This document shows positions 27,438-64,000 of a stretch of 64,000 bases of DNA, piece by piece; the first letter of the stretch is position 1; each line of letters starts with the position of its first letter. The stretch covers positions 160,001-224,000 of the forward strand of contig CBEVQO010000001.1 of assembly GCA_965552055.1 (NCBI GenBank), written 5' to 3'. The notes beneath the pieces are model-generated. The model saw only the letters and a list, made by a program, of their open reading frames with translations, was not told the origin of the DNA and searched no databases. Position numbers and translations under genes: made by a program. The stretch comes from an uncultured bacterium (GTDB lineage: Bacteria; Hydrothermota; UBA3073; NMUJ01; CBEVQO01).

Positions 27438-27445
27438 TTTACCTC

Positions 27446-28138: not shown

Positions 28139-28152
28139 TATTCCTCCTTATT

Positions 28153-28542
28153 TTATTCTTTCTTCTGTTCTTTTGGTCTTTTGGTTCCGTATTTCGAGCG
28201 AGATGTCCTTCTTCCTTCCACTCCTGCGCAATCATACGCTCCCCTTACGATATGGTATTTCACACCCGGTAAATCTTTAACTCTACCTCCCCTCACCAGT
28301 ACAACAGAGTGCTCCTGCAGATTATGACCCTCACCCGGAATATACGCTATTACCTCCCTGCCCGTACTCAACCTTACTTTCGCAACCTTTCTTTGCGCAG
28401 AATTCGGCTTTTTAGGCGTAGTAGTATAAACTTTTACGCAAACTCCCCTCTTCTGAGGACAGCCCTCAAGTGCCGGGGATTTCGACTTCCTTTTCTTCTT
28501 TTTTCTCCCCTTCCTTATCAACTGATTTATCGTGGGCGGCAT
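28153..28542 (-). CDS. rpsL: 30S ribosomal protein S12
   Basis: [32 protein letters not shown]. Confidence 0.98.
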
Positions 28543-43354: not shown

Positions 43355-43832
43355 AAATAATGAACCTTTTAAAATAATAGCACAAAAAATAAAACCACAT
43401 ATTTCAATAATTGTGAGAAATCTTCCGCGAGGAGATTTGCAAAAAGAAGAAAAAGTCGTAAGTTTTATAAAAAATATCCTCAACAAATACCGTGTTAAAA
43501 AAATTATTATTTGCATAGATTCGGAATGCTATAATTATAATCTACGCCTAAAAATAAATAACATTTTGAGAAGGTTAAGAAAAACATTTAAAAAACAGGT
43601 TATCCATTATATTATAATACAGTGTGCTTTTGAAAGCTGGATTTACGAAATCATCACAAATAAAACCGCTCCACAAGTGAATTCAGCTAAATTGAAAAAC
43701 GAGATAAGAAAACTCAAAAGGAGATACGATATTAAAGTTGTAAGGGAGATTATTGAAAATATGAACATCTCAATGCTTCGGCAAATTAATCATAGTTTTG
43801 ATGATTTTGTGAAAGCAGTGAGGGACCCATGA
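43317..43832 (+). CDS. Small TOPRIM-like partner protein (DUF4276-like)
   Basis: IVED, ICIDSE, FESW, HSF motifs; overlaps the ATPase 3' end. Confidence 0.6.
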   Translation: MKKREIAMIVEDKNNEPFKIIAQKIKPHISIIVRNLPRGDLQKEEKVVSFIKNILNKYRVKKIIICIDSECYNYNLRLKINNILRRLRKTFKKQVIHYIIIQCAFESWIYEIITNKTAPQVNSAKLKNEIRKLKRRYDIKVVREIIENMNISMLRQINHSFDDFVKAVRDP

Positions 43833-45944: not shown

Positions 45945-46835
45945 TTATTTCATCTTGAACAGAAAGTCAAGTTTGTGAGTGTTTTTGAACTCCGGATGTG
46001 TTGAGTAGGCATAGTTTATGCCGAAATTCCTGTAATTAAGCCCAAGACCGCAGGTAAATTTGCCATTATCGAGTCCAAATCTCAACTTCGCTTCTTTAAT
46101 CATGCTCCACTCGATGCCAGTGTGAAATGTAAAGGGATAACCTGAAGAAAGTATCCTCGATGTCTGCAATGACAAAATCAACACATCGTATCCTTTCCAG
46201 TAAGAGAGAGCTAATCCCACATCTGCAGAAGGTTTGAGTTTATCCGTATATCCTGTGTTCCACTTTATCCTTGTGAAAATGTCAGAAATCCTTATTCCCG
46301 TATAAATTCGCAGAGCAGAAGCAAGTAAATGTATTTTTGGCGCAGAATAGAAAATGCCAAAGTTAAAACCAGCTCCCCAGCCTTTTGACTTATGTAATTC
46401 CATTCTGTAAAATTTAAAAGTGATTCCCGCAGAAAAATCTTTAATCTTGTGTCCAAAACTTAGGCTATATTCCTCTGTTAAAAACTTTGCAGTACCAAGA
46501 TAGACAATCTCCGGGTAGTTTGTTCCGGGTAAGGTATCGCCAGATGTGGTCTGCTGCCATTCTGTGCTTACCCTTATTAGTCCAAATCCCATAGGTATAT
46601 TTTTAAATCTTTTACAGATAGCGATATAATCATATTTTGTCTGTGCAGGAAGCTCTGTATGCATGTAAAGTATTTCTCCGTGATAAAGTTGAGTTAATGC
46701 GGATGGATTGAAGATTACGGAGTTTACATCATAAAGTGCACAGAATGCATTGCCGAGTGCCGAAGGTCTTGCTCCTGTCCCCACATTCAAATAATCAAAA
46801 TTTGTTCCCCATGCTATCAAAAATATCAATAACAT
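45945..46835 (-). CDS. PorV/PorQ-family (UPF0164-like) outer-membrane beta-barrel
   Basis: L.VG.GAR..ALG.A....D...IFNPSAL N-terminus; alternating beta strands; GIEW...LRFG...GLG. Confidence 0.8.
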   Translation of the reverse strand: MLLIFLIAWGTNFDYLNVGTGARPSALGNAFCALYDVNSVIFNPSALTQLYHGEILYMHTELPAQTKYDYIAICKRFKNIPMGFGLIRVSTEWQQTTSGDTLPGTNYPEIVYLGTAKFLTEEYSLSFGHKIKDFSAGITFKFYRMELHKSKGWGAGFNFGIFYSAPKIHLLASALRIYTGIRISDIFTRIKWNTGYTDKLKPSADVGLALSYWKGYDVLILSLQTSRILSSGYPFTFHTGIEWSMIKEAKLRFGLDNGKFTCGLGLNYRNFGINYAYSTHPEFKNTHKLDFLFKMK

Positions 46836-46844
46836 ATCACCTCC

Positions 46845-49800
46845 TTACTTTATAACCGCTATCTTCCAGATTGATTCTGCACTTTCCTCCTCTGTCTTCG
46901 CTATCACTTTACAGATGTAAACTCCATTGAGCACGATGTCGCCAGCAAAGTTCCTGCCATCCCATGTAATATCCAGCCTGCCACTTAATACGGGTATTTC
47001 CTCGCTCCATATGAGATTGCCTGCAAGTGTATAAATCTTAACTTTCACCTCTGCTGGCTTATTCACCTTCACCGCTATTTTGGCTGTATTTCTCAATGGA
47101 TTGAATGGATTTGGATAACTCGCAACTTCAACATTCAAAGGCTCATCCACTGTGAATATAGAAATCGGCATTTTTACAGCTCCAAATTCAGGTAATTTGA
47201 AGCGCTGAACCCTGTCATTGTTTCTGTCTGCTACATAAATCTCTTTTACAACATCACCTTCATAGCAAAGCGAAATGCCACAGGGTTTGTTGAATCGCCC
47301 CGGTTCTTTTCCAAATTCTCCAAATATCAGTAACCTGTTTCCAAATCTATCGCACATAACAATTCTATCCGCATTCCTTTCGCAAATCCATATATTCTTA
47401 TGTCTTGAGATTTCAACATCTGCGGGATAATCAAAATTCTCTATCTCCATAACCCTGAACGCCGTATCAAATAAGTTCACATAGTATTTAACGACTTTGC
47501 CACTGCAGACAAGGCATGTGAAGATGTAAGGGCTGTCAACTCCAATACCTTCACATTTATGTGCAGGAATCGTAAATACGATATTTGCAGAGTCGTCAAG
47601 GAATGTTAGCCTATCCCAATTTCTTTCTGCCACAACTATGTAATCACCATAAAAGTTTATTCCTTTTGGATGATTTAGTCCCGTTGCTGAATAAACTTCA
47701 TTCCCCGATAAATCAAATCCAAGCACAGTAAGATGCGTATGACCCCACCACAATGTCGTATAAATTATTTCTCCATTGAACCTTACAGCATTTGGATGAT
47801 GCAAACCTGTTATTTCTCCAACAAAATTACCCCAGTAATCAAAGTATGCAATCCTCTTATTGTTTCTGTCTGCTACATAAATCCATGAGTTTCCATCTGG
47901 TAAAATGTGCACACCTTCAGGTTTATGCAGACCTGTTATTGCGAGGTCAAATTGTGGCTCACAGCGAAAGATTATCCTTCGAAATTCAGAAGTGTTTAAC
48001 ACAACATCCTGTGCTGTTAATCTCAAAACATAAATTCCGTCGGATAAATCTTTTGCATTGAACCAGCCAAGGATTGTATCTATCATCTGCTTTTTGCCTT
48101 CGGAGATGGTTATCCAGTCAGATGGTGAAATTCCTTCTCCATACTCTAATTTCCACCATCCAAAGTGAACATCCCTTACCCTTCCATAAACAGGCACATT
48201 CTGATTTACCATGCAGGATTCTGTCGGTGAGATTATGAAGCATTCAGGTGGAGTGTCATCAAGTATAAATTCATGAGATTTAACATCTTCTTTATTTTCC
48301 ACATTATCAATTGCATAATGGGAGATTGTGTGCATGCCATCCTGTCCTTGCAAGCCCCAATCTTCCAGAGTGAATACAAAGTGAGTATCAGGTATTTCCT
48401 GCCATGGCATGGAATCCACTCTATAAACTATTTTCTGCACGCCCGATGCTACTCCTGCGGATAATGGGTCTTCTGCTCTCAATGTGAAATCTGTATGCGA
48501 TGTGATAATCGTTGAATCTCCGTAACTATAAGAAGGTGTGCCAGTTATCAGTTCAGAAACAGGTTTTGTATCATCGACTGCGAGTAATTTTTCTTTTGTG
48601 GGTTCACGATTGCCAAGCTTATCAACTCCATAATAGTAAAGTGTATGCAAGCCTTCTCCCCATTCGGCGAGTGTAAATGTGGTCTCTGCAACATAAATCC
48701 TCTTTTGAGAAGCATCACACCACCAGTAGCCAGTATCTACTCCACATCCTTCGTCTGTTATTGTGAGAGTTAAATCCGTATGTGATGTTATATACATTGG
48801 ATTATCACTGTATTTGGGTTCGCCGATTGTCAGTTGGCTTACAGGCGGTGTGTTATCGAGGTAAACCGTGATTATTTTGTGTCCTTCTTCATTTCCAATG
48901 TTATCAATTGCCCAGTATTCAATTGTGTATTCTCCATCTTCTCCTGTTATTGTGAATGCCACGCTATCGCCTGAAATTACATTTTCCAAACCATTTATCA
49001 TGTAGTGAATTTCTTTTACTCCGCTGGATGCATAACTTATCACTGGGTCTTCCGCTTTAAGTGTTATTTTAGTGCTTGATGTTAGCCACAGTTTACCTTC
49101 CTCATCCTGATATTTTGGTTCACCGAATGTGATTTGTGTTTGTGGTGGTGTGTTATCGACATAAATCGTTTCACATTTCTGTGGCTCTGTGTTTCCGAGA
49201 TTATCCACAGCATAGTATTTTACATTGTAAACTCCATCTGATGGTAGGGTGAATTCTCCTCCCTCTACCCAGTACCCTGCAAAGTTGTAGTATCTGCTTT
49301 TTACTCCGCAACCTTCATCTATTGAGAAAATCATAATTAGTGAATTAGAAGTCACAAATCTTTTACCATCAATCAAAATAGTAGGTGGCTCGAAAGTAAG
49401 ATGTGAAGAGGGTGGTGTATTGTCGAGGTAAACAATGGTATCAATGGTTAAACTTCTATGTCCGAGATTGTCGAAAGTCCAACAAATTATTGAATACTTG
49501 CCGTCTTTCCTTGCAATAATGTTATAAACAATGCTATCAGAAAATGTTGAATCAGCATCAATCTTTGTCGTATTATAATAAACTTCGTAATTAATTTCTT
49601 TTACACCGCTTGCAATTCCATTTATAATGAGGTCTTCCGCTTTCATGATAATATCTGTTTGAGAAGTAATCCACATTTTATCGCTTACATATTTTGGCAA
49701 GGTTATTGTGATTTGTGCAACAGGAGAAGTATTGTCAATCCTTACAATTTGTGATTTTATATCTTCTCTGTTTTTCGCTCTATCAACGCTATTGTAATAA

Positions 49801-52800
49801 ATTGTGTATTCCCCATCAGGATATTGTAATTTGAAGGAATAAGGCAACAAATCAGTGGTAAGTGCATGAGTTATGCCATTTATCTTGTAGTATGTTGTAT
49901 CAACTCCGCTTTTATCATCCCATGCGGAAATTGTTATTTGAGTCGTAGAGTCTATATAAGGTGGTGAGCCGTAATTTGGTGTGCCAATGGATATCTCCGT
50001 AACAGGTGGAACAGTATCTTCTATTATTTCAATTGAGAATGCAATTGTTTGATAATTTTCTGCATAATCCCTGGCTGTAATGTGGCACATGTAAATCCCT
50101 GCTGGTAAAACCTTTCCAGAAAAATCTTTACCATCCCAGATTTCGGTATAGCTGCCTTCTTTTAGATCAAAATAAGATTTATGATAAACACCTGCTCCTA
50201 TCGGGTTCTCAATCATAATTTCTACAATTTTACATGATTCGGATAAAGTGAAATGGATATAGGTTTCTTCTCCTGTTGAAGGCATAAAAGTAGTGGGTTC
50301 TGCATAAGCAGTTATTTGAGGAGGCACCCTATCCACCAGCCAGTAGCCTGTCACTTCATTTGACTTATTGCCGAGAGAATCAATTAAGAATGATATGAAT
50401 CGATAGTAACCATCGGGTAACAACCTTCCAGCATCATCGTATTTTTCCCACACGAAACAAATTGTGTCAGCCTTAAATACCTTTTTCTTAGTAAATTTAT
50501 CTGTTACCTGATAATAAAGCATTCCTGCAGTAAAAGAGAATATTCGTAATGTCTCCTCATAAGTTTTGTTCACAATTAACAGAGTTTTTTCTGCTTCTAA
50601 TTTAGGCACTGATAATTTCCTCCATCCTACAGGTGCATTCTTTATTGCTGGTTCTGTTGGCTCTGGTGGTTCCGGTGGCTCCTCTGGTGGCTCTTCACGA
50701 GGTTCTTGCCAGCCTGCTATTGCAGAGATTGATGAAGATGAAGTCATTATTTTCTTCTTTAAGTTCTCAAAAGCTTCTAATTTTGTAACAAAGATTACTA
50801 TTTCTCCTGGCTTCACTTTTATCAAATGACTGAATTTACCTTCTGCATCGGTAGCCACTCGATAAATACCGATTAATTCGCTTTCGTCATTTATATCAAA
50901 TTTTCGTGCAGATAATGTTAAAGTAGAAGTGGGATTATAATTAGCAACAACTTCTCTTGCAACTTCATATATGTTCCTAAGAGGATTTGTAACTGCGATA
51001 ATAAGAGAATCCAATGGTTTAGCGTGTCCTTTAATTTTTGCTGTGGTATCGTTTATAGTAATGAAAGAGTCAATAACAGGCTTCACTGTTTCCGTTTCTG
51101 TGTAATATAAAGGTGCAAATACTGGGAAATCACCACCTGGAAAGGAGTCAAGCGCTGCTTCTATTGTAAGAATTCCATCCGCTTCAGGCTGACAGGGAAA
51201 TGTTGTTAAATCAACTATATCTCCAGAAGGTGAGATACCATATAATTTCAACTTTGAAGTATCTATGTTGCATTTTTCAATATCCCGGGGCGTATAATGG
51301 AATTTTAAAGTTGGTCTTTTTGTAGTATCGAACTTAGCACCTGCTGGCTGCATCAATAACACAGGTCCATAGTTGCCCGTTATTATGGGAGTGCCATACC
51401 CTAACCCAGCATCTTCTATTAGAACAGGTGAAATTTTAGCAATCGTATCAGTTGGGAACGCTCCTTCTTTAAAAATTATCTCTGCTCTACAATAAGGAGA
51501 GTGCGCCTCCGATACATTATCATGTGAGATAAAATCACCTACATAAATGTCTTTGTAATAAACTTTCACAGGAGTTTTCGAACTTTTGCTTTCAAACAAT
51601 TTAAGCATTAATCTGTATTTTCCATAAGCGTGTATTGAGTTCCAGTAGCAAAGTGTTTGGAAGCCTCCAACAGGTGTTTTCCTTTTTGTCAACTGATAGA
51701 GATTCTTTCCGTCATATGCCCATAATTCGTAATAATGACCTTCAGGGTCTCCCTGAATTTCTATAAATGCTTTTGGCAAACTATCTAAATTAAGAGTATG
51801 AACAGGAATAAAGGAATCTAAGGCACTGTAACCAAATAAAGAATCGTGATAGCTGATAACAAGTGTATCGAGGTCATAATTATTTTGGTCGTTAATGTAT
51901 TTTAGATTAATATTCCAGTTTGTGATTTTGAGGTAAGGGTTTGAGTTATTATCCCAAAAAGTAGCGGTATAATCGTTCTGCTGGGCAACAACCTCTGCCG
52001 TTGCATTAAATTCAATCGGATTTATTACTTTACATGTTGATATTATGCCACTCTTAGAAAGGAAATTAACAGAAGTGGTTAGTTTAACACCTCCTGTAAT
52101 TAAAGAAACTGCCATCCAATTGACATATGCGCCAATTTCTTTTGCGACGATTTTATCGCCTACTTTTAATTTGCAGATACATTTAGTGACATCATAATCT
52201 GGAGGTACATTGACATTCCAACTAGTAAATCCAAATGTGGATTTTTCCGTTAAATAAAGTTCCTTTTGAGTAGAAAAGGTATCCGTTACATACAAAGTAC
52301 AAAGTCTTGGACGACCATCAATACCGGGATCTTCTTCCTCTATAATCATTTTTTGAGCAACAAAACTTGCTTCAAATGTAACTTTCCTTTTAAGAGAGTT
52401 AGAGTACCAGTCTATGAAACCAACCTGTTCACCTTTCCCATAAGGCTTAAATTCGTCTTTTGTAAATATGATGGGCATAGAGAATATTTTTCCCTGTTTA
52501 AGGTTTGTATCCATAGTTGTTTGCCATGCTAAAGTTTCAGCCACTACTCGTATAGAGTCCTCCCAAGGTGGAATTAATCTCACATTTTCTCCTGCTATTA
52601 AATGTGGTGTTTGGTATCCACCAATTTGCACTACTTTTGGATTGACAGGAAATAGCTCATCGTAAGATATAATGTCCGTATAATAAACGGTATCAGAATG
52701 TAATTTTATTAATAAGGTATCAAAAATTGACTTGAGGTCATTCGAAGGCACACTAATAATTTTGCCACTTTGAATGCGTGAATAAAGAGTACTATAAGTA

Positions 52801-55800
52801 AAAAACTTAAAAGTCACTCCTCCAATAGATATACTGTCGTAACATCCACCGCTGGAAATTTTTGAAGAATCTTTAAATTCGACTTTGTAGCTTATATTTT
52901 GTATTTCTACACTATCCAAAGTATCCCCAAAACTAATCGTCCAAATTAGAGTGTCATTAAAAATTCCTATTCTATTAACGAAAGATTTTGTTGAATAAAG
53001 TGTCGCGTCTAGATAAATGGCATAGACAGTTCGATAACTTCCGGTGCCCAAAAACCAAGTAGTAACATCATCACTGCCTTTAGCTTTAACTAAGTACCAG
53101 TTACCGTTACTGCAATGTTGCCAATACGCATAATCTCTTTCCAATAAAATACTAATACTGCTAGGTCCGCCTGAATAGGGATTATTCACGACAGCCCATG
53201 TTGGGTCGCCAGCCCAATAAAAGTCAGGAGTGGCGAATATCGGAAAATCTTCATAATCTTCCACCTTCGCCTGTATTGTGACGCTAACCAAAGGTTTACC
53301 TCCTTTACCGATTGCGGTATCAACCAATGTATAAGGTTGAGGCGGGCAATACTCCCCCTCTGCACTTGCTTCAAATTTAAATTCTGCAAGTTCTTTATAA
53401 ACAGTATCTCCCAAAACTCCTACTTTATATCTATCTGGTATCACAATATTTCCATAAACTACAGAAAATGCGCCTGTATCTGCTTTAAATGTTTCACTTC
53501 TCGTGGTATCATAATCTTTCCCATCCAGTGAAGTCGCCTTTATCACAAAATAATATTCTCCTGTATCTGCTCCCGTGCCCTCCCATGTGTAATATGTTTG
53601 CCAGTTGCCCGCTGCAAAAAGATTTGTAACCAGAGTTTTTAAATATGCATCTTCATGATATAGATCAATTTGAACATTCGCATCTCTGTTTACTTTGAAA
53701 CTCAAAGTCACAAGTCTCTGCACGCTATCTTCATGGAAAGGATAAAAGACATCGGGACTAACATTGACATCCGTGATTTCAAATTTTGTCTTTACATTCA
53801 CAAATGCACTATCAATTGCTATGCCTTTGTAATCCTCTGCAATCGCCATCAATAGCACTTTATACCTGTCACTGCCTACATCTTCGCCTTCATTATTCTT
53901 TCCAAACCATAACACTTCTTTTATAGTATCTCCAAGGTCTATGACACACGGATTCTGGCACAATAAAGTATCTTTTCCAAGCCACAATCTATCTGTAAGT
54001 ACATCATTTTCATAAAAGGCAAATTCAAGTCTTCTGCTTTCTGACTTAAATGACAAATATTTTGTCCCGGTGTCCGCCATATAAATCATTCCAATTAATG
54101 AATCTTCGTAATTTTGGATAAAGAAATCAGTTGGATAAACTGTAAAGCCAGGTTCACTTTGCGCTCTTATGATGCACTTAGCAACCGTTACTCCATTTTC
54201 GTTCCTGAAAGCAATCTTCCATGTATCTTCTATCATATAAAGATAAAAGCCATGATGCAGTATGGCAGGCACACCTTTATATGGATAAATCACTCCGAGA
54301 TCTATATCATTAATATTTTTGCCATTCTCATCAAGGATATTTATTCTAATATGGGAAACTTTACCCTGAACCAGATAATTGATTTTCAATGTATCTCTTT
54401 CTCCCTGAATATTTAATGTGTCATCTTCTCCTGTTAATTGTGTTAAAAGTGTAACCTTAGGCAAAACACCTGTAAACGGCTTAACATAAACTGTCTCAAT
54501 ATCACAAAGATAATTTCCATTTTTCTCATAACTTATTAGTTTCAATTCACAGGTGTTATCTGCAAGTCCAGATACATCCCAGTATGCCAACATGTCAGGA
54601 GTTTCTACCTGTTTTATTCCAATATTTGCAGAATCACCTCGAAGCTCCGGTAATACTTCAATTCCTGTTTTTTGCCATATTCCTCCAGTTGTTCTCCACC
54701 ATATTTCAAATCTGTCAAATCCAGATGTGTTTCGCATATCAGGGTCAGATGCCCTCCCGAATATTGCTACTCTTACAGCCTCTACTGTATCTTTTGGATA
54801 AACGATTTCTGCACCAAATGTGCGTTTCAAAACCTGATCTTGCTTCCAGCTTACATTGCCCCATTTGTCCTTTAAAACAAGTTTAACATTATGGCAGCCG
54901 TTTGGTAAAGGAGTTAAATCTATTAATGCCTTGCCAGAAACTACGGAGCTACCAGGCTTAACTACAGTATCAAGTTGCAACAAAGTATCCACATAAATTT
55001 TAAGCGTACAAATACCTCTATTTTGTGCGATGTCTTTTCTTTCGGATACTTTGAAATAAACTTCCGCTGTGTCATTTATCGGAATAAGTGGCAATACATA
55101 AAGGTCAATTATTTCTGGTGCTGTTCTATCCACTCGCAATGTCTCTCCACCGAGGGGTTCTGGTACAATCGCTTCATTACCTGCTTTATCCCGTGCTATT
55201 ATCTCTGCTTTATAAAGACCATCGGGTAAATATTCGCCAAACCAATTTTTACCCCAATATATGATGTTTGTATCTTCTTTTTCACCTGTGTAATATCTCT
55301 TCTCGGTATAACCACTGACATAATCTGTAAAAGTAACTTCCATCTCTGTCCATTCATCTGTTAAGTATTTCATTATAATTGCAGTATCTTTTGATGTGAA
55401 AATAAGTGGCGTAAATGTTTGTGTAATCTCTATTTGCGGAGGCTTTGTATCAACTATGAAATAACCAGTATCACTCGAAACATTCCCTGCCTTATCCTTT
55501 ACAAATACTTTTACGATGTATTTGCCACCAGAAAGAGTATCCACATACCCGTATCTTCTTATACTTTCAAAATAGCAGAATTTAATAGTGTCGTGCACAA
55601 CTGTATCTCTCAATGAGTCATAAACCTCGAACCATACTGATTTTGGTACAAATAACATGTTTTCGAGGTTATCGGATGGTTTAAATATTATATTTAATGC
55701 AGGATGTGCTTTCCATGACCATAAAGTGGAATCGGGCTGATAAACTTCTACAACAGGAGGTGTGGTATCCCTATAGAAAAACCAATCATATTTTTCAGAA

Positions 55801-58757
55801 TTTTTGACACGCACTTTGTCAACGAGTTTTGCAAGAATTATGTATCTGCCTTCAGGGAGAGGTAAGTAAATTGTGTCAATTATAAAATCAGTTGCCAGAG
55901 GTTCATAGTCTCCATCGGTTTCTATAGTTTCGATTTTCATTTTATAAAAAGGAAAACTAACTTCGATCATATTTGTATCTTTACCGCATATAAAGATGGT
56001 ATCTGTATCCGGGGTTATAACCCAGAGAGAGCAACATTTCACACCTGACCTGTCAACTCCTTTAAATTTGATTTTGACGGTATCTTTGTTTGTAGCGAAA
56101 TTAGGCTTAGGTTCTATAATCACAATTTCAGGAGGTTCGAAATCCGGAATTCCAGGTGAAATTGACGCTATTCCTTCACCCCAATGCCTTCTTCGCTCAC
56201 ATATTTTCTTAAAACCACTATTGGTTTTTACTCCAAAATACGTCCACTGATCGTTTTCTTTTATCCTAATTTCTCCATCTTCTTCAGGTTTAAATACATT
56301 GGATTTCAATAAATTCGCAATAGAATCTCGTACTTCTCGCGCTTCCAGATCGTAAGGGGACAATCCTCCCACTCCATCACCACAAATGCCTATCAAAACG
56401 GTATCACCTACGGATAATGATTTTAGGTAATTGTATAAACGGTCGGCTTCTATTTTTCCTGAATCGGGGAATTGAGGATTATAATAAGTTCTAAATCTTT
56501 CGGTATCTACAGGTATTCCATTTCTTATGACGACTACCCAGATGCCAGGTTTATCTTCAAAGTTTATCACATTTCCAGCTGCAAGGAACTTTATGTAGTT
56601 TCCATCTTTGCTTCCTGCTGATTCTATTGCATTTAAATACCCTCGACCTGCAGCTAAAATCGGTCTTTTAACTTGATATTCTCTCGGGAAGCGCCAAGAT
56701 TGACCTATTGCGTGATCGGGAACAAAGCTATTATAAGTATTATATAAAGTATCCATATGGATTCTGCATCCTTTGATCCCTTTTATTTTTACGCTTTCTA
56801 TACCTTTAACCAAAAAAGGTTCAAATGAAGTGGTGTAAAATTTAGAACCATTGCAGTCTAACTGTAAATGAAAACCATAAAAATTGGTATCCAATGGGAA
56901 AGGTATGGTATAACTTTTTCTACCTTTTTCAATTAGGCTTTTTAAACCCATTTCTTTTAAATTACAGGTTATTGTTGTCTCCTTAACTATGGGTTTATTA
57001 AAATAATTTAAATACGGATCATCTCCTATTATTTTAATTTTTAAAGTTAACTTTTTATCAAAATTATAGGTAGGAGATAGCAGAAATACTTTCACACTAC
57101 AGGGAGCTCCTTGAAAGAAGAATGAATCAGGAAAAAACCACTTTACTTGTTGCACTAATAATTCATAAGGTTGAGAGGAAAAATCTCCGCATTCGCTCAA
57201 ACTATGTATAACGGCGTTCGTCCTCGTAATATTTAATGTCTTGTCCCATAATTCTTTCATTGTATTACAAAAATCTAAGTTTCCGTCCCCGTTAAGGAAA
57301 TTAAATATTTTTTTATTACAAAGAAGAAGCATTTTTTTAAGTACTTCAAAATTCCAGTGCGTGAAAGGTTCCTTTGACTCCCAAAATTCCGATGCAAATG
57401 TATAGTTTTTTAACAATCTTTCTTTCATTATGCAGTATTCTATATTTGTTCTTAACTCATAAGGCATTTGAGCTTCTAAGGGAGGGGCTTCTGCTGCTTC
57501 ATCGTACAAAGGTTCTGTGAAATTAAGCCATTCATTGGATAACAACAAATTTGCATATACGATAGCATCCATATCACTTTTAATTGGAAGCGAACATACT
57601 TTTTTTATGTGTTTAATGGTGAAATATATCCACCTTGTTGTTATTTCTGCTTCCATTTTATTTTCTTCCCAGTTCGCATAAACTCTGCAATCAGCAGGCA
57701 ATAAATAAAACCATACAGGTATTACCGCTAATAAAAAGCGTGAACCGCCATCTCTTCTCTTTGCAAAATAAGAATAAATCATCCTATATATCAACGCTCT
57801 TAAATATTTTTTATTTGATGTCAATATATCTCCGATTTTACAATTTGCAATTACTATTTTAGCAAGAGTTTTTATTAAACCTTCTTTCCAATTATTTGGT
57901 TTGCTCTTTTCTATTTCTTTTCCTATGTTTTCTTTAACCATAACTTCAAACAATTCTGAAAAATCATCTAAACTTTTATATGCTCGCGAATATTTAACAA
58001 ATAAAAAGAATTCTTCATAGCTCTTTCTAATCTCATCAGCAGGTATACTTGAGTCTATTGAGTGAATAAAATTTGCTAAATCGAAATGCACTATCAAAGG
58101 AGGGACTTCAAATAATAAACCTCCGTCGTTCCGCACAATCATTCTAAAAATATGGGCTGCATCTAAAATAATCCTTGCGGATGGTAATAGATACAGTGGC
58201 GGTAAAGGAGCGAATTTATCAAGGAATGCCTCTACGAACCATTCTAATTGTTTAAACCTTTCTTTTTCAATGTGAGGAAACCCGATATCGCCTACCTTTA
58301 AGTATTTACACAAAAATGGCAAAAGAATATTATCAATGTGAAAATCCATAAGGAAATGATTTAAGTATCCCAAAGCAAAGCAAACTTTTTCTATTGAAGG
58401 ATCATTTTTATAAGTTATAAAATCTTCATAAGCCTTTTCAAGTAATTGAACAGCGAATTCTGGGCTATGTAAAGATATCAGCGAAGGGTTCACTGAACGA
58501 ACATCTGGTGCGATGCATCCTGCTATAAAGGCGTTTCTGAATCTTAAATATCGCATATATTTATGAGTATCGCTAACACTGGGAATCACAATAGGAGGTT
58601 TTTCTCCTAAATCTACTCCGAACTGTCCCTCTATTTGATTCTTTAAACTATCCCATATTACAAAACCCATCCTTCCATGAGTTATTGGACCATATCCTAA
58701 AAGTGTATTTGCAAGTATTATTAAAATACCCACAGCTATTACTTTATCCCCCTTCAT
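46845..58757 (-). CDS. 3970-aa secreted multidomain protein: Zn-phospholipase-C-like head, ILEI/GG-like domain, many Ig-like/FlgD repeats, NHL propeller, YPNPF C-terminal sorting-like domain
   Basis: Signal peptide; YGPITH/GCIAPD/GYLNHFLMD; IESAG...GIWVVVI; repeated D.TPP and D..GN; VADRNN; YPNPFNP...WDGRN...NGVY. Confidence 0.85.
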   Translation of the reverse strand: MKGDKVIAVGILIILANTLLGYGPITHGRMGFVIWDSLKNQIEGQFGVDLGEKPPIVIPSVSDTHKYMRYLRFRNAFIAGCIAPDVRSVNPSLISLHSPEFAVQLLEKAYEDFITYKNDPSIEKVCFALGYLNHFLMDFHIDNILLPFLCKYLKVGDIGFPHIEKERFKQLEWFVEAFLDKFAPLPPLYLLPSARIILDAAHIFRMIVRNDGGLLFEVPPLIVHFDLANFIHSIDSSIPADEIRKSYEEFFLFVKYSRAYKSLDDFSELFEVMVKENIGKEIEKSKPNNWKEGLIKTLAKIVIANCKIGDILTSNKKYLRALIYRMIYSYFAKRRDGGSRFLLAVIPVWFYLLPADCRVYANWEENKMEAEITTRWIYFTIKHIKKVCSLPIKSDMDAIVYANLLLSNEWLNFTEPLYDEAAEAPPLEAQMPYELRTNIEYCIMKERLLKNYTFASEFWESKEPFTHWNFEVLKKMLLLCNKKIFNFLNGDGNLDFCNTMKELWDKTLNITRTNAVIHSLSECGDFSSQPYELLVQQVKWFFPDSFFFQGAPCSVKVFLLSPTYNFDKKLTLKIKIIGDDPYLNYFNKPIVKETTITCNLKEMGLKSLIEKGRKSYTIPFPLDTNFYGFHLQLDCNGSKFYTTSFEPFLVKGIESVKIKGIKGCRIHMDTLYNTYNSFVPDHAIGQSWRFPREYQVKRPILAAGRGYLNAIESAGSKDGNYIKFLAAGNVINFEDKPGIWVVVIRNGIPVDTERFRTYYNPQFPDSGKIEADRLYNYLKSLSVGDTVLIGICGDGVGGLSPYDLEAREVRDSIANLLKSNVFKPEEDGEIRIKENDQWTYFGVKTNSGFKKICERRRHWGEGIASISPGIPDFEPPEIVIIEPKPNFATNKDTVKIKFKGVDRSGVKCCSLWVITPDTDTIFICGKDTNMIEVSFPFYKMKIETIETDGDYEPLATDFIIDTIYLPLPEGRYIILAKLVDKVRVKNSEKYDWFFYRDTTPPVVEVYQPDSTLWSWKAHPALNIIFKPSDNLENMLFVPKSVWFEVYDSLRDTVVHDTIKFCYFESIRRYGYVDTLSGGKYIVKVFVKDKAGNVSSDTGYFIVDTKPPQIEITQTFTPLIFTSKDTAIIMKYLTDEWTEMEVTFTDYVSGYTEKRYYTGEKEDTNIIYWGKNWFGEYLPDGLYKAEIIARDKAGNEAIVPEPLGGETLRVDRTAPEIIDLYVLPLIPINDTAEVYFKVSERKDIAQNRGICTLKIYVDTLLQLDTVVKPGSSVVSGKALIDLTPLPNGCHNVKLVLKDKWGNVSWKQDQVLKRTFGAEIVYPKDTVEAVRVAIFGRASDPDMRNTSGFDRFEIWWRTTGGIWQKTGIEVLPELRGDSANIGIKQVETPDMLAYWDVSGLADNTCELKLISYEKNGNYLCDIETVYVKPFTGVLPKVTLLTQLTGEDDTLNIQGERDTLKINYLVQGKVSHIRINILDENGKNINDIDLGVIYPYKGVPAILHHGFYLYMIEDTWKIAFRNENGVTVAKCIIRAQSEPGFTVYPTDFFIQNYEDSLIGMIYMADTGTKYLSFKSESRRLEFAFYENDVLTDRLWLGKDTLLCQNPCVIDLGDTIKEVLWFGKNNEGEDVGSDRYKVLLMAIAEDYKGIAIDSAFVNVKTKFEITDVNVSPDVFYPFHEDSVQRLVTLSFKVNRDANVQIDLYHEDAYLKTLVTNLFAAGNWQTYYTWEGTGADTGEYYFVIKATSLDGKDYDTTRSETFKADTGAFSVVYGNIVIPDRYKVGVLGDTVYKELAEFKFEASAEGEYCPPQPYTLVDTAIGKGGKPLVSVTIQAKVEDYEDFPIFATPDFYWAGDPTWAVVNNPYSGGPSSISILLERDYAYWQHCSNGNWYLVKAKGSDDVTTWFLGTGSYRTVYAIYLDATLYSTKSFVNRIGIFNDTLIWTISFGDTLDSVEIQNISYKVEFKDSSKISSGGCYDSISIGGVTFKFFTYSTLYSRIQSGKIISVPSNDLKSIFDTLLIKLHSDTVYYTDIISYDELFPVNPKVVQIGGYQTPHLIAGENVRLIPPWEDSIRVVAETLAWQTTMDTNLKQGKIFSMPIIFTKDEFKPYGKGEQVGFIDWYSNSLKRKVTFEASFVAQKMIIEEEDPGIDGRPRLCTLYVTDTFSTQKELYLTEKSTFGFTSWNVNVPPDYDVTKCICKLKVGDKIVAKEIGAYVNWMAVSLITGGVKLTTSVNFLSKSGIISTCKVINPIEFNATAEVVAQQNDYTATFWDNNSNPYLKITNWNINLKYINDQNNYDLDTLVISYHDSLFGYSALDSFIPVHTLNLDSLPKAFIEIQGDPEGHYYELWAYDGKNLYQLTKRKTPVGGFQTLCYWNSIHAYGKYRLMLKLFESKSSKTPVKVYYKDIYVGDFISHDNVSEAHSPYCRAEIIFKEGAFPTDTIAKISPVLIEDAGLGYGTPIITGNYGPVLLMQPAGAKFDTTKRPTLKFHYTPRDIEKCNIDTSKLKLYGISPSGDIVDLTTFPCQPEADGILTIEAALDSFPGGDFPVFAPLYYTETETVKPVIDSFITINDTTAKIKGHAKPLDSLIIAVTNPLRNIYEVAREVVANYNPTSTLTLSARKFDINDESELIGIYRVATDAEGKFSHLIKVKPGEIVIFVTKLEAFENLKKKIMTSSSSISAIAGWQEPREEPPEEPPEPPEPTEPAIKNAPVGWRKLSVPKLEAEKTLLIVNKTYEETLRIFSFTAGMLYYQVTDKFTKKKVFKADTICFVWEKYDDAGRLLPDGYYRFISFLIDSLGNKSNEVTGYWLVDRVPPQITAYAEPTTFMPSTGEETYIHFTLSESCKIVEIMIENPIGAGVYHKSYFDLKEGSYTEIWDGKDFSGKVLPAGIYMCHITARDYAENYQTIAFSIEIIEDTVPPVTEISIGTPNYGSPPYIDSTTQITISAWDDKSGVDTTYYKINGITHALTTDLLPYSFKLQYPDGEYTIYYNSVDRAKNREDIKSQIVRIDNTSPVAQITITLPKYVSDKMWITSQTDIIMKAEDLIINGIASGVKEINYEVYYNTTKIDADSTFSDSIVYNIIARKDGKYSIICWTFDNLGHRSLTIDTIVYLDNTPPSSHLTFEPPTILIDGKRFVTSNSLIMIFSIDEGCGVKSRYYNFAGYWVEGGEFTLPSDGVYNVKYYAVDNLGNTEPQKCETIYVDNTPPQTQITFGEPKYQDEEGKLWLTSSTKITLKAEDPVISYASSGVKEIHYMINGLENVISGDSVAFTITGEDGEYTIEYWAIDNIGNEEGHKIITVYLDNTPPVSQLTIGEPKYSDNPMYITSHTDLTLTITDEGCGVDTGYWWCDASQKRIYVAETTFTLAEWGEGLHTLYYYGVDKLGNREPTKEKLLAVDDTKPVSELITGTPSYSYGDSTIITSHTDFTLRAEDPLSAGVASGVQKIVYRVDSMPWQEIPDTHFVFTLEDWGLQGQDGMHTISHYAIDNVENKEDVKSHEFILDDTPPECFIISPTESCMVNQNVPVYGRVRDVHFGWWKLEYGEGISPSDWITISEGKKQMIDTILGWFNAKDLSDGIYVLRLTAQDVVLNTSEFRRIIFRCEPQFDLAITGLHKPEGVHILPDGNSWIYVADRNNKRIAYFDYWGNFVGEITGLHHPNAVRFNGEIIYTTLWWGHTHLTVLGFDLSGNEVYSATGLNHPKGINFYGDYIVVAERNWDRLTFLDDSANIVFTIPAHKCEGIGVDSPYIFTCLVCSGKVVKYYVNLFDTAFRVMEIENFDYPADVEISRHKNIWICERNADRIVMCDRFGNRLLIFGEFGKEPGRFNKPCGISLCYEGDVVKEIYVADRNNDRVQRFKLPEFGAVKMPISIFTVDEPLNVEVASYPNPFNPLRNTAKIAVKVNKPAEVKVKIYTLAGNLIWSEEIPVLSGRLDITWDGRNFAGDIVLNGVYICKVIAKTEEESAESIWKIAVIK
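50650..50710 (-). repeat. Low-complexity Pro/Glu linker (EPREEPPEEPPEPPEPTEPA)
   Basis: Short imperfect ggctctggt-type repeats. Confidence 0.7.
55219..56107. repeat. 889-bp direct repeat, copy 1 (no mismatch seen versus 60231..61119)
   Basis: Constant offset of 5012; the ORF track shows identical peptides at 55419 and 60431. Confidence 0.9.
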
Positions 58758-58758
58758 T

Positions 58759-60062
58759 TTAACCTCCTATTTTGCATATTTTTTTCTTAAAAAATTTTTC
58801 TCCTCTTTTTACTACCAAAAAATATATTCCTTTAGATAATCCCGAAAAGTCTATTTGAAAATTCTGCCTGCCTGTGCCTATCAGGCGAAGTATTCTCTTT
58901 ATCCTCAATCTCCCCATTACATCATAAACCCTTACATCAACATCTTCGTCTCCAATAGCTATTAATTGCAGATTTATAAAACCTCTGCATGGATTGGGAT
59001 AGACAACAAAATGCTCCCTGCACGCCTGAACATCCCAAACTATCCTGCCAAATATCCTGCTACTTTGCCAATCAGATGAAATTCTGCGTGTATAAACGAT
59101 CAAAAATTGACCTTGAGAACCGCTTATTTGATATCCATAACGGATAGGAATTTCTATTTCGGCTATTCTTGTGCCTGTTTCGTCTATTATTACGGCATGT
59201 CCTGACCAGATTATCATATAATTATTTCCGTTAAATGCGCAGGGAGGCGATAAGCCTATCTCGTCAGTTAATAAAATTTTAGTAATAAAATTACCCTCAT
59301 TTGAATAAATTTTAGCTACTATTGACTGTGCAAGAGTGGCGTAAGATACACAAAAAGTGTTATTTCCTTTTACACTATACTCCCCTTTCATCGTCCCTTC
59401 GGAAATGCTCGGATCATCAGCTATCGCAAATGACTTTATTTTTTCCAATTGTTCGTTTAACTCAATTCCGTAAAGATTTGACTCATAATATCCTTCGATC
59501 CCATAAACTATAAAATACCTTTCATTGACACATACAATGGCAGGCCCACACAAAATGTACCCTGTCCTCACAAGCACTTTTGGCTCTCCGAGGACTTTGC
59601 CTTCAGGCGATACCTTCACTACTCTCAACTCATCACCTGACCCCCTCTTGCAAATCCAGCAAACAACAAAATTTTCACCATCGAAAGTACAAGCTGCTGG
59701 ACCTATTGTGGTATCTATTATAGTTTCATTTGATAATTTTTTACCTTCGGATGTAAACCATAACCCCATTGTTTTATGTTTTTTTGCAATGACGACCAAG
59801 AATAAAGAATCCCCATAACAAACTGCATAAAGTCCTCCTGTATCAACAGAAATCGGTTCCATATCTAATAATACGCCTTGAGGCGTTACTCTTGCTCCTT
59901 TTATGTAAGCTCCATTTTCTGTCCACAATACAAAATAAATTCCATCTCCATATGCTACTTTTGGACCAGTTTGAAGATTTTCACTCAACCCAATTCTAAA
60001 CTCGTCCCCCACTATTATTTTTGCTGTATCAGTGAAGAAAATTAGTGCTAAAACTACCCCAT
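58759..60062 (-). CDS. Beta-rich repeat protein with a YPNP C-terminal sorting-like domain; probable true start at ATG 60062 is out of frame by 1 nt (longest open frame starts at 60012)
   Basis: Repeats of P.VA....YFV.W / GEN(F/Y).V.W; VYPNP...VYDVMGR...LSKGIYF. Confidence 0.75.
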
Positions 60063-60067
60063 CGTAA

Positions 60068-60094
60068 ATTTTAATCCAATTATCGGAGTGTCAA
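60068..60094 (-). promoter_or_regulatory. sigma70-type promoter TTGACA-N15-TAAAAT; ATG 5 nt downstream
   Basis: Hexamers read directly; lies at the truncation point of the 1247-aa ORF. Confidence 0.75.
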
Positions 60095-63000
60095 GAAAAA
60101 ATTCAAAACATAAAGGTCAACTATTTCTGGTGCTGTTCTATCCACTCGCAATGTCTCTCCACCAAGGGGCTCTGGTACAATCGCTTCGTTACCTGCTTTA
60201 TCTCTTGCTATTATCTTTGCTTTATAAAGGCCATCGGGTAAATATTCGCCAAACCAATTTTTACCCCAATATATGATGTTTGTATCTTCTTTTTCACCTG
60301 TGTAATATCTCTTCTCGGTATAACCACTGACATAATCTGTAAAAGTAACTTCCATCTCTGTCCATTCATCTGTTAAGTATTTCATTATAATTGCAGTATC
60401 TTTTGATGTGAAAATAAGTGGCGTAAATGTTTGTGTAATCTCTATTTGCGGAGGCTTTGTATCAACTATGAAATAACCAGTATCACTCGAAACATTCCCT
60501 GCCTTATCCTTTACAAATACTTTTACGATGTATTTGCCACCAGAAAGAGTATCCACATACCCGTATCTTCTTATACTTTCAAAATAGCAGAATTTAATAG
60601 TGTCGTGCACAACTGTATCTCTCAATGAGTCATAAACCTCGAACCATACTGATTTTGGTACAAATAACATGTTTTCGAGGTTATCGGATGGTTTAAATAT
60701 TATATTTAATGCAGGATGTGCTTTCCATGACCATAAAGTGGAATCGGGCTGATAAACTTCTACAACAGGAGGTGTGGTATCCCTATAGAAAAACCAATCA
60801 TATTTTTCAGAATTTTTGACACGCACTTTGTCAACGAGTTTTGCAAGAATTATGTATCTGCCTTCAGGGAGAGGTAAGTAAATTGTGTCAATTATAAAAT
60901 CAGTTGCCAGAGGTTCATAGTCTCCATCGGTTTCTATAGTTTCGATTTTCATTTTATAAAAAGGAAAACTAACTTCGATCATATTTGTATCTTTACCGCA
61001 TATAAAGATGGTATCTGTATCCGGGGTTATAACCCAGAGAGAGCAACATTTCACACCTGACCTGTCAACTCCTTTAAATTTGATTTTGACGGTATCTTTG
61101 TTTGTAGCGAAATTAGGCTCTGGTTCTATAATCACGATTTCAGGTGGCTCATAGTCAGGAGGAGTGGTGGGCAGAGCAATCGCAACACCTTCTCCCCAGT
61201 GCCTTCTCTGCTCATAAATCTTCTTAAAACCACTATTAGTCCTTACACCTAAATATGACCATGAATCGTTAAGCTTAATTCGTATCTCTCCCTCCGCTAT
61301 GGGCATTAGACAATCACTACTTAGCAAATTACCTAATTTTTTTCGTATATTTCTAGCATCTGGGTCCTCTGATTTTAATCCTCCCACTCCATCACCACAA
61401 ATACCTATCAAAACGGTATCACCTGTAGATAATGATTTTAGATAATTGTATAAACATTTGGCTTCTTCTATTGGATCAATCCCTCCGGGCGGATTTTTAT
61501 AAGTGTGAAATCTTTCGGTATCTACTGGGGTTCCATTTCTTATCACGACTACCCAGATGCCTGGCTTATCTTCAAAGTTTATCACATTTCCAGCTGCAAG
61601 GAACTTTATGTAGTTTCCATCTTTGCTTCCTGCTGACTCTATTGCGTGGGGATACGCTGCTGAGCCTAATGGAAGTTTACGCCCTCTATTTAAATCAATA
61701 TTTCTAAAAGAATGCACTACATCATCATAAGTGGTATAAAGTGTATCCATATGTTCTCTTGTATAATATCTGCCTCTGAAAAATACTCTCTCTATCGCTT
61801 TTGTGCGCACTGGCTCTAAATCCGTCGTAAAGAAAAGTTTATCACTATTCCAGCATACCGCTATATGATAGCCATAATATTGAGTATCAATTTCAAAAGA
61901 TACAGGTATTTTTATTCTCTTTCCTTGATTGTTTTCAATTAAACTTTTCATTGAAATTGAACTTAAATTCATTGCAATAGAAGTGTCTTTTACGACACTA
62001 TCTTCTCTCCATGAAGAATAAGGTTTGTCTCCCATTATTTTTACTTTCAAAGTTCCTTCTTCATCCGGCAATGTCCAGTAAGGAGAATAAACTTCAAGAG
62101 TGCAGATATTACTTTCATAGAATGTAGGAATAGTTAAAACTTTGTGATCAATGCGAAATGAACCCTTTAAAATTTTTAACATGGATTTTTTGATTGCAAT
62201 ATCGTAGATTTTTTGATTTTCAGACCAATAATTCTCATTTAGCCATTTATTAGAAATATTCCCAGTCTCACAATAATTGATAGCATCAGATAAGCACCGT
62301 AATATAAATTCTTTTTGAGTATTTGCATTTATGGGCAGAGTGTTTTCCCAGAAGCCTTTAAACAAATTGGAATATGGATTAAGTAAGTCGTTTCCTCCAA
62401 ATTTGTGAAATTCTGGATTATTTTTAAAATATTTTTCAAAGTTTGTCCTGGGTTTAAGGAAACTCAGGATAACTATATTTTCAAAAACTCCCAACGGTAT
62501 TTCTACGGTATCTACTTCGAAATAAGTCACTGTTTCATAGCCAAACGCCGGTATAATCGGCTCGATCACTTCTTTTGTTTTAGTAGTACAGACTATTCCC
62601 GGAAGTGTATAATCTGCCCAAATTTTGCAAGAATAATGAATGCTTCCCAAGAGTCTTAATGCGGTTCCTACCCCCGCAAAAGCCAAGCCTATAAAAGAGA
62701 GAAGTGCATTTTGAGATACCACACCTATGAAAGTAAGCCAGTAACCTACCTCCATAAGTATAATACCCCATTCCTCAGCCGGAAAATCAACGCTTATTGT
62801 CAATATATGTTTCCGAGGGTTATCCCCAAAATAATATTCCAATACTCCTTCACTATATCTTTTAATCACTCCTGCAGTGAAAGAAAGTAAAAATCGCTTT
62901 AAATCCTCGTCAAGATTATGAAAATATAATTCACAATATTCTTTTTCTTTAAAATGATTATATGCTCCCAATATTTGTTTTAGCGTTGGTGCTAATTTCA

Positions 63001-63823
63001 TTACTACCATTGGAACGAAGAAATAATTTCTCGTTATCATTAATAGAGTAATATCGGGGAAAAGGGAAACAAATGTTTCGTTAAAACCCCAATTTGTAAT
63101 GTCTCCAGCTGTAATTTTCTCCTTATCAATTGGAGTAACTTCGCGTAATCTATCAAATATATCCACCACAATTGGGGCAACGCATAATCTCTTACTTACT
63201 TCTTGTTTTTCCTCCTCATCGTCCTCTATAATGTTAATCCCTATATTGTCAGCTAGAAATTTTCCTAAAATCTCTGCTGTATCGAATGTTATTTGCATAT
63301 CAGATGCAACTTCAGTATTTGGATAAGCTTTGCAATAATAAAAATCTGTAATCCATCCGATGTTATCAAGCATTTTGTTGGACAAAGCTGATATAGCAGG
63401 GAGTGAAGGATTCCCTACACACGCATACTCACACAGCCAAGGTCTTATCAAAATATCTAAATACCTGTCTTGTAAAATATGAGTTAAATATCCACAGGAA
63501 AAACATAGTTTCATTAAATTTTCCTGAGAAGGAGAATTTTCGCAAGCATCCCATGCAGATTTAATTAATGCCAATGCTCTAGGTCTTTCATGTAATGTAT
63601 TATGAACTTCTTCATCGTCATGATATAAATCAGGAGCAATGCAACCTAATAAGAAACTCTGTTTATAGACATCATTATTTAATGCCACATTTAATTTCTT
63701 TTCAAGTGTATCTTTAAAGCTTTCCCAAATCATTTTTCCATGCCCAATATGCGTTACGAAGCCGTATCCAAATAAAGTTTTATGAAAGAACAAACCCATT
63801 ATCAAAAAGAAAAACCTTTTCAT
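60080..63823 (-). CDS. 1247-aa C-terminally truncated paralog of the giant protein with a different Zn-PLC-like head (orphan cassette or pseudogene)
   Basis: YGFVTH/GCIAPD/GYLTHILQD head; ILEI-like domain; matches the giant protein up to DLYVL, then NFFLTLR-stop. Confidence 0.85.
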   Translation of the reverse strand: MKRFFFLIMGLFFHKTLFGYGFVTHIGHGKMIWESFKDTLEKKLNVALNNDVYKQSFLLGCIAPDLYHDDEEVHNTLHERPRALALIKSAWDACENSPSQENLMKLCFSCGYLTHILQDRYLDILIRPWLCEYACVGNPSLPAISALSNKMLDNIGWITDFYYCKAYPNTEVASDMQITFDTAEILGKFLADNIGINIIEDDEEEKQEVSKRLCVAPIVVDIFDRLREVTPIDKEKITAGDITNWGFNETFVSLFPDITLLMITRNYFFVPMVVMKLAPTLKQILGAYNHFKEKEYCELYFHNLDEDLKRFLLSFTAGVIKRYSEGVLEYYFGDNPRKHILTISVDFPAEEWGIILMEVGYWLTFIGVVSQNALLSFIGLAFAGVGTALRLLGSIHYSCKIWADYTLPGIVCTTKTKEVIEPIIPAFGYETVTYFEVDTVEIPLGVFENIVILSFLKPRTNFEKYFKNNPEFHKFGGNDLLNPYSNLFKGFWENTLPINANTQKEFILRCLSDAINYCETGNISNKWLNENYWSENQKIYDIAIKKSMLKILKGSFRIDHKVLTIPTFYESNICTLEVYSPYWTLPDEEGTLKVKIMGDKPYSSWREDSVVKDTSIAMNLSSISMKSLIENNQGKRIKIPVSFEIDTQYYGYHIAVCWNSDKLFFTTDLEPVRTKAIERVFFRGRYYTREHMDTLYTTYDDVVHSFRNIDLNRGRKLPLGSAAYPHAIESAGSKDGNYIKFLAAGNVINFEDKPGIWVVVIRNGTPVDTERFHTYKNPPGGIDPIEEAKCLYNYLKSLSTGDTVLIGICGDGVGGLKSEDPDARNIRKKLGNLLSSDCLMPIAEGEIRIKLNDSWSYLGVRTNSGFKKIYEQRRHWGEGVAIALPTTPPDYEPPEIVIIEPEPNFATNKDTVKIKFKGVDRSGVKCCSLWVITPDTDTIFICGKDTNMIEVSFPFYKMKIETIETDGDYEPLATDFIIDTIYLPLPEGRYIILAKLVDKVRVKNSEKYDWFFYRDTTPPVVEVYQPDSTLWSWKAHPALNIIFKPSDNLENMLFVPKSVWFEVYDSLRDTVVHDTIKFCYFESIRRYGYVDTLSGGKYIVKVFVKDKAGNVSSDTGYFIVDTKPPQIEITQTFTPLIFTSKDTAIIMKYLTDEWTEMEVTFTDYVSGYTEKRYYTGEKEDTNIIYWGKNWFGEYLPDGLYKAKIIARDKAGNEAIVPEPLGGETLRVDRTAPEIVDLYVLNFFLTLR
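60231..61119. repeat. 889-bp direct repeat, copy 2
   Basis: See copy 1. Confidence 0.9.
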
Positions 63824-63824
63824 T

Positions 63825-64000
63825 TTACCCTCCTATTTTACATATCTTTTTCTTAAAGAGTTTCTCTCCTCTTTTTACTATCAAAAAATATATTCCCTCC
63901 GATAATCCGGAGAAATTTATTCGAAAATTCTGCCTCCCTGTGCCTACCAGCTGAAATATCTTCTTCATTCTCAGTCTCCCCATTACATCATAAAGTTTTA
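63825..64000 (-). CDS. 3' end of a paralog of the 58759..60062 gene (partial)
   Basis: YDVMGRLRMKKIFQLVGTGRQNFRINFSGLSEGIYFLIVKRGEKLFKKKICKIGG-stop; same 1-nt gap to the next ATG. Confidence 0.88.
   Translation of the reverse strand, partial: KLYDVMGRLRMKKIFQLVGTGRQNFRINFSGLSEGIYFLIVKRGEKLFKKKICKIGG

Follow-up and report, generated by a model that had tools for sequence, protein, structure and literature searches.

Polymorphic toxin systems such as Rhs, CDI and MafB carry a C-terminal toxin with the immunity gene and detached (orphan) tips downstream, and most of the orphans are startless according to the parts of the reports available to us (PMC3482391, PMC2935791). As the available text of the latter describes, an incoming Rhs tip displaces the resident one, and displaced tips accumulate in detached form with a piece of the core (PMC2935791). 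Other described systems make use of type IX secretion (T9SS). In Tannerella forsythia, KLIKK enzymes of unrelated N-terminal classes share one type of T9SS tail, and each enzyme gene lies immediately downstream of the co-transcribed gene of its cognate inhibitor, a potempin (PMC9890683; PMC4404884). The accessible text presents them as parallel full-length genes, describes neither truncated enzyme orphans nor a common arm, and gives potempins as lipoproteins of 98-132 residues with host-protein targets (PMC9890683). The large TANFOR polymorphic toxins of Bacteroidetes, for which T9SS use has been hypothesized, have a conserved N-terminal TANFOR domain, a C-terminal toxin and downstream immunity, with the T9SS tails on neighbors, in the portion of the report available (PMC7073777). 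The same portion describes T9SS cargo as having an N-terminal signal and a C-terminal tail, so the tail end of such cargo cannot vary. Very large proteins with cell-wall-degrading domains have also been linked to predation in the uncultured phylum Omnitrophota; they are much larger than the giant reported here, and the words "polymorphic", "type IX" and "recombination" are absent from the text available (bioRxiv 10.1101/2023.11.21.568195).

The window analyzed here is a 64,000-nt stretch of DNA (C1:160001-224000) from a 2.2-Mb genome (G000) that is 97% complete. Relatives in the same phylum set carry the name candidate division WOR-3, and hydrothermal vent metagenomes are among the runs that contain the stretch. 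The locus is a tandem of cassettes, each composed of a promoter, a partner gene, an enzyme-like head and an arm, and only the last one is fused to a giant trunk with a secretion tail. As in the available descriptions of Rhs, CDI and MafB, a constant trunk carries an exchangeable enzyme tip, detached tips form arrays with a near-identical trunk piece, the tips are low in GC and decoupled from trunk history, and there is one partner gene per tip (PMC3482391, PMC2935791). Unlike in those systems, the head is N-terminal and the partner and orphans lie upstream; the orphans keep a start codon, a signal-like N-terminus and a promoter and lose the export tail, and the identified heads are all predicted to be envelope-directed. 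Several features that define polymorphic toxin systems (PMC3482391) were found, namely a constant trafficking part with a variable effector domain, cassettes with trunk homology and a co-varying adjacent gene (here upstream), and the variable domain was not at the C-terminus. The locus also departs from the KLIKK/potempin pattern: partner1 is a 417-aa protein with a T9SS tail, the giant has no KLIKK ending, the head is no peptidase, and the partners are larger than potempins (276-581 aa). On the basis of its sequence, the locus is probably a polymorphic effector-immunity system of reversed polarity. Searches for polymorphic toxins target variable C-termini and downstream immunity, so an inverted system would be missed by design. 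The layout was not found described in the literature searched, which left most subscription papers outside and whose supplements could hold similar loci, and "WOR-3" and "type IX secretion" occurred together in no paper of that literature.

Organization of the locus

The features of the locus are as follows, all on the minus strand.

45945..46835, minus: PorV/PorQ-like gene for a 296-aa beta-barrel, next after the giant (NF033709, E 1.7e-22; 80 bits against a cut-off of 90)
46845..58757, minus: full-length giant, 3,970 aa (ORF and profile matches)
46887..47117, minus: C-terminal sorting-domain-like tail, giant aa 3881-3957 (TIGR04183, 23.6 bits, cut-off 23; PF18962, E 0.018, below cut-off)
55092..55218, minus: shared-arm end in the giant, differing from the orphan copy at 9/127 nt
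55219..56107, minus: arm copy 1 (in the giant), 889 nt identical to 60231-61119
56108..56643, minus: ILEI-containing block (PF15711; four-way DNA alignment)
56661..58697, minus: variable head1, giant aa 21-699 (PF00882, E 4e-6; Atlas 0.93)
58759..60012, minus: partner1, 417 aa from GTG (PF18962, E 3e-13)
59981..60106, minus: promoter and partner-start block, 126 nt (TTGACA at 60094, -10 box at 60073, ATG at 60062)
60080..63823, minus: orphan head2, ILEI and arm, 1,247 aa, no secretion tail (ORF, alignment and profiles)
60104..60230, minus: orphan arm end and junction to the promoter block (alignment; bridged by a 232-nt contig of run X3)
60231..61119, minus: arm copy 2 (in the orphan), 889 nt identical to copy 1
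63825..64000, minus: 3' end of partner', 446 aa in full, reaching window-equivalent position 65165

From the N- to the C-terminus, the giant consists of a signal-like N-terminus, head1 of the zinc-dependent phospholipase C (Zn-PLC) family, ILEI and the arm, followed by Ig/FlgD/OmpL47-type repeats, an NHL propeller and a T9SS type-A-like tail. The reading frame of the orphan is intact over 1,247 codons, with no stop or frameshift, and ends inside the promoter of the next cassette. The ORFs matched the gene order of the initial annotation, which had been made from the letters alone (partner', head2 with arm, promoter, partner, head1 giant and PorV-like gene). Its suggestion that more cassettes lie past position 64000 did not hold: upstream of partner' are a second promoter block and then a 790-aa gene of outer-membrane type with a weak SprA match (65255-67627), and the locus has a single orphan.

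Two neighboring regions were also recorded, with gene names given by eye. A low-GC AAA-ATPase gene and a small partner gene lie between ispG-like and panD-like genes (window 42209-43832), and Cmr-like (type III-B) CRISPR genes with a repeat array lie approximately 12-23 kb past the window end (G000:C1:236235-246900).

Zinc-dependent phospholipase C-like heads

The two heads had been described as sharing only scattered motifs, and they proved to be true homologues, both matching PF00882 (27.2 and 34.7 bits; cut-off, 26.8), with which Atlas agrees. Their identity is 21-30% over aa 1-600, 38% over aa 601-700 and 66-77% over the ILEI block, and the sequences are 100% identical over aa 901-1100. 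The head1 region comprises a Zn-PLC-type helical domain with a large insertion, followed by a beta-sandwich. The candidate metal-site residues H7, D65, H77, H114 and D118 were invariant in 6/6 homologous sequences, and the later metal ligands were not. The heads have in common with the Zn-PLC family (PF00882; Bacillus cereus PLC, 1AH7; Listeria PLC, 8CQM) the N-terminal His, Asp, His, His, Asp pattern and the helical fold, but differ from it in approximately 300 inserted residues and in later metal ligands that are not clearly conserved.

The structural model of head1 was of low confidence (mean pLDDT, 51.6). Its residues 2-473 aligned to three solved Zn-PLCs (Z 6.2-6.6), the only ones of 50 structure matches to cover these residues, most of the others covering just the beta-sandwich (aa 508-626). 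A Foldseek search with the model gave no match in the PDB at E 0.001, and the PLC-head sequences gave no meaningful match in the PDB either. The model comparison modestly backs a Zn-PLC fold of head1. S1/P1 nuclease and GPI-phospholipase D are activities related to this family and are alternatives for the heads.

A word-index search for relatives of head2 returned head2 alone, and an exhaustive search added three. PLC-type heads with ILEI also occur elsewhere as stand-alone proteins of 909-1,071 aa, so head and ILEI form a mobile unit.

Arm repeat and promoter blocks

The whole arm repeat measured 1,549 nt at 90.8% identity. The 889-bp identical direct repeat noted initially at a distance of 5012 bp was confirmed, as the longest identical run at offset 5,012 was exactly 889 nt. 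Since both copies are in the same frame, a crossover between them would, by arithmetic, yield a 3,988-aa product. The proposal that such a crossover fuses head2 to the body thus stands as in-frame geometry; the event itself would leave no new junction inside the identical 889-nt repeat, so the 5,012-bp deletion or circle would be invisible in contigs. In a four-way DNA alignment, the ILEI block proved to be a patchwork: some stretches are identical and others have diverged when head1, head2 and a third head of this genome (head3, below) are compared.

The 126-nt block of promoter and partner start is repeated at 65134-65259 with 99% identity, a repeat missed in the initial annotation, and also precedes partner3, the partner of head3. 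The cassette promoter fits the genome's own type of TTGACA, 15-nt spacer and -10 box. Over the whole genome, TTGACA with a 15-nt spacer was found at 302 sites with 299 distinct spacers, versus 8-54 sites at spacers of 12-14 and 16-21 nt. A generic scan for promoters with a 16-18-nt spacer did not pick up the cassette promoter and gave counts at shuffle level; cassette promoters of related genomes have a spacer of 16-17 nt. At many promoters of this genome an ATG lies 5-7 nt past the -10 box, which suggests widespread leaderless mRNA.

Partner genes

Partner1 contains a repeat-rich domain, probably propeller-like judging from its sequence, and a T9SS tail (TIGR04183, 45.4 bits; cut-off, 23), and is a candidate immunity protein for head1. 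It is 47-50% identical to partner' and partner3. Across the loci, the partners comprised NHL or other propellers, TolB-like lipoproteins, HEAT-repeat proteins and some proteins without a family match. Partners outlast heads: G253 retains a head remnant of 82 aa, and the head is absent in G047.

In all three PLC-type partners and in a contig of a sister strain, the ATG beside the promoter is one base off the partner frame (window 60062-60012 in partner1), so these partners may be without a signal peptide. This ATG lies 5 nt past the -10 box, as is usual in this genome. A hydrophobic leader precedes the GTG in frame. Initiation at a near-cognate codon, or a slip of one base, would provide the PLC-type partners with a signal peptide; otherwise they would have no envelope access. 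Run X2 holds an allele of a PLC-type partner with an in-frame ATG. The same short ATG-Gly-stop start was seen in an unrelated gene on contig C12. A public protein (P0004) is 99% identical to the N-terminal 330 aa of partner1 and ends in another C-terminal tail, which suggests that recombination has occurred within the partner gene.

Candidate secretion machinery

When tested as T9SS type A cargo, both the giant and partner1 showed a C-terminal sorting domain above the TIGR04183 cut-off, and the head N-termini are basic-hydrophobic and signal-like by eye. The genome encodes a PorU sortase above cut-off, an SprA-like frame of 1,768 aa and a PorV-like gene below cut-off, and ComEC. The GldK match was below cut-off and GldM was not found by a profile search run without a positive control, so that the export machine is at most a putative T9SS. 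Contig C2 carries a second giant, likewise followed by a PorV-like gene, 97% identical to that of the window.

The 790-aa gene with a weak SprA match (L001:3256-5628, L026-L039) was present in 22/272 genomes of the phylum, usually in the order giant, PorV-like gene, NHL-like protein and 790-aa gene, and is possibly a dedicated export or anchoring module for giants. The L090 genome had no match to it.

Second array and strain variation

Another complete locus lies on contig C2 of the same genome, flanked as at the first locus by the 790-aa gene (91-94% identical) and the PorV-like gene (97%). Its order is partner, M23 head (248 aa), partner, M23 head (256 aa), partner, and M23 head with trunk, with a 159-nt promoter block at 96% identity and head-end repeats of 172 and 101 nt. 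The two trunks are 95-98% identical in DNA over the last 4.4 kb and the C-terminal 500 aa of the two giants are 98% identical, leaving aa 1-700 as the variable part. The C2 giant (~4,045 codons) has a single in-frame stop in an acidic linker (L003/L004, G000:C2:50178-50180), because of which it slipped past a control on 12 ORFs of at least 900 aa with a tail motif. In that control, an upstream truncated paralogue was scored only for the window's giant; the genome's 10 other long ORFs with a tail had none. Two further pairs of partner and M23 head were seen on C2, at 1-1631 and 25857-30442; one of the two extends past the contig end, and the other includes a complete protein of 1,129 aa whose C-terminus resembles a tail.

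A remote third pair, partner3 and head3, lies 170 kb away, and head3 (829 aa) ends after ILEI. The metagenome contig L054, from a sister strain, is 99.8% identical to this pair over 3,867 nt, and its head3 runs in frame into an arm 97% identical to that of the window. Three heads are thus common to one arm within the species, in line with the expected head diversity between strains, with L054 ending before the trunk. GTDB holds no same-family relative of the genome, and the strain comparison consisted of L054 and contig loose ends; the latter revealed a fourth partner allele and a different sequence after the 790-aa gene in other strains.

The sequence was also compared with contigs of five runs, each of which contained at most 66% of the window by word content; one may be close to the source sample. 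Run X1 covered 1,781 nt of head1 with zero differences, run X2 covered head2 and the head2-arm join, and run X3 covered the arm-trunk join. A 232-nt contig of run X3 (depth 7) bridged the arm end, promoter and partner start with three differences. Joints of 5,456, 2,298 and 560 nt fit the remote third cassette and were left out of any count of recombinants, and joints with 20-21-nt sides were taken as chance.

Arrays in other genomes

Of the 272 phylum genomes searched, 14 contained the trunk end of the window and 20 contained a second arm, of Big_5 type; L090 was added by a scan of all GTDB contigs. Orphans had been predicted to lie upstream on account of the C-terminal export signal, and 18 giants were inspected. 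Upstream orphans were present at nine loci in eight genomes (this genome twice, G264, G047, G022, G269, G052, G253 and L090) and absent at five; one locus was ambiguous and three were at a contig edge. No downstream orphans were seen at the inspected giants where that side was visible. The array is real and recurrent. Promoter boxes lie at or just past the orphan ends in G047, G022, G269 and G264. In G264, two orphans whose head classes differ share one out-of-frame tail, and in G022 two orphans likewise end in a common one, indicating that the arm-promoter junction travels as a unit.

The anticipated variable N-terminal effector on a constant trunk was borne out by the head classes. The window's trunk family carries Zn-PLC, M23, lipase and alpha/alpha-barrel heads, the Big_5-arm family carries M23, NlpC/P60 and other heads, and unrelated classes share one arm in G269, G022 and L090. 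Classes were assigned as M23 (Pfam), NlpC/P60 (MepS/Spr and RipA matches; best E, 2e-4), PGAP1-like lipase and alpha/alpha barrel. Two more classes had no database match, and from their motifs we take them to be caspase-like and permuted papain-like, labels with no Pfam support; the His-Gly/Cys class gave nothing meaningful against the PDB by sequence. Heads of the same class within one locus are 21-37% identical. In L090, the GC content of the cassettes is 0.30-0.49, versus mostly 0.56-0.73 in the distal trunk.

The partner family tracks the head family. In a set of 33 head-partner pairs hand-picked from the loci retrieved, reduced to 25 from 18 genomes by keeping one per genome and head class, the partner cluster was the same in 36/36 same-head-cluster comparisons (permutation mean, 4.5; 0/20,000). 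An exception found later is the NlpC/P60 head of G047, whose partner is of an M23-associated family, and the giant of G022 has no separate partner. Within the NlpC/P60 class, head and partner similarity were correlated (Mantel rho 0.48, p 0.002) and nearest neighbors agreed in 8/10 cases. Neighboring genes would be expected to co-vary through co-inheritance by itself, and related genomes do not count as independent cases. In a 20-sequence arm tree, head class was not clustered (11 changes; shuffled mean, 12.3; 42/200 as low). Co-inheritance is enough to account for the pairing but leaves unexplained the repeated joint switching of head and partner on a common arm.

Proposed mechanism and alternative explanations

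We propose that a T9SS-like route carries the giant out of the cell, where it stays attached to the surface and forms a stalk tipped by the head. The head would damage the envelopes of rival cells, acting as a phospholipase C-like enzyme here and as a peptidoglycan hydrolase or lipase elsewhere, and the partner would bind and block its own head. Incoming DNA from another strain would recombine at the arm and take the trunk. The resident partner and head may then be pushed upstream, where they would form an orphan that lacks the tail but still has its promoter, and the old immunity would thereby be retained. An arm-arm crossover is predicted from the arithmetic to return head2 to the trunk in frame. 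By analogy with Rhs, the favored reading is that orphans are displaced former heads rather than a purpose-built reservoir.

A different role for the same proteins, which we regard as rather unlikely, is that of hydrolases at the cell surface with which the organism feeds on cell debris or prey. The partner would then be a transit inhibitor or folding chaperone that guards the cell's own envelope during passage of the enzyme through the periplasm, as potempins do for KLIKK peptidases. Cassette exchange would then alter substrate range, and orphans would be leftovers. An upstream inhibitor with a T9SS-exported N-terminal enzyme is established in Tannerella, according to the available text of PMC9890683; moreover, all identified head classes here are degradative enzymes with no nuclease among them, and some, such as the alpha/alpha barrel of G262, are atypical as antibacterial toxins. 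However, the divergence of same-class heads within one locus indicates turnover beyond what substrate switching needs. Partners also remain intact, mostly with their own promoter box, where the head is reduced to 82-256 aa or missing, which fits protection from the enzymes of other cells.

The organization could also have arisen if the 5' end of a gene for a giant adhesin had simply been duplicated in tandem, with one copy now decaying and the arm kept alike by gene conversion. The junction of arm end to promoter does resemble an illegitimate join, and the patchwork ILEI block shows gene conversion. We consider this origin very improbable and largely refuted, since the orphan head is 70-79% diverged yet open over 1,247 codons, unrelated head classes sit on one arm in several arrays (G269, G022 and L090), and 0/10 other long tail-bearing ORFs have an upstream truncated paralogue. 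It is still harder to credit that the assembly is a strain chimera in which two alleles were joined through the arm repeat. No piece spanned the 889-nt repeat in the contigs of the five runs, and the populations hold several alleles; against this, the 232-nt X3 contig runs from the arm end through the promoter into the partner start, 9 sites distinguish the two arm ends, and the same layout occurs in eight separately assembled genomes.

Biological significance

The reversed-polarity effector-immunity reading leads to a broader proposal, which we hold at about even chance. These loci may represent a new class of WOR-3 interbacterial weapon, in which T9SS-type stalks carry swappable cassettes of head and immunity gene, the upstream stack serves both as an expressed immunity memory and as a reservoir rearmed by crossover, and polarity is set by the C-terminal export signal. 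If real, the system would indicate that the polarity of such a locus follows its export signal, and would be a concrete case of T9SS-type secretion in interbacterial conflict outside Bacteroidota. It would also offer at least nine candidate inhibitor families against peptidoglycan hydrolases, lipases and phospholipase C, in pairs that would be testable as small recombinants with no culturing of the organism, and would supply a rule by which Bacteroidota and other phyla that use C-terminal sorting could be searched.
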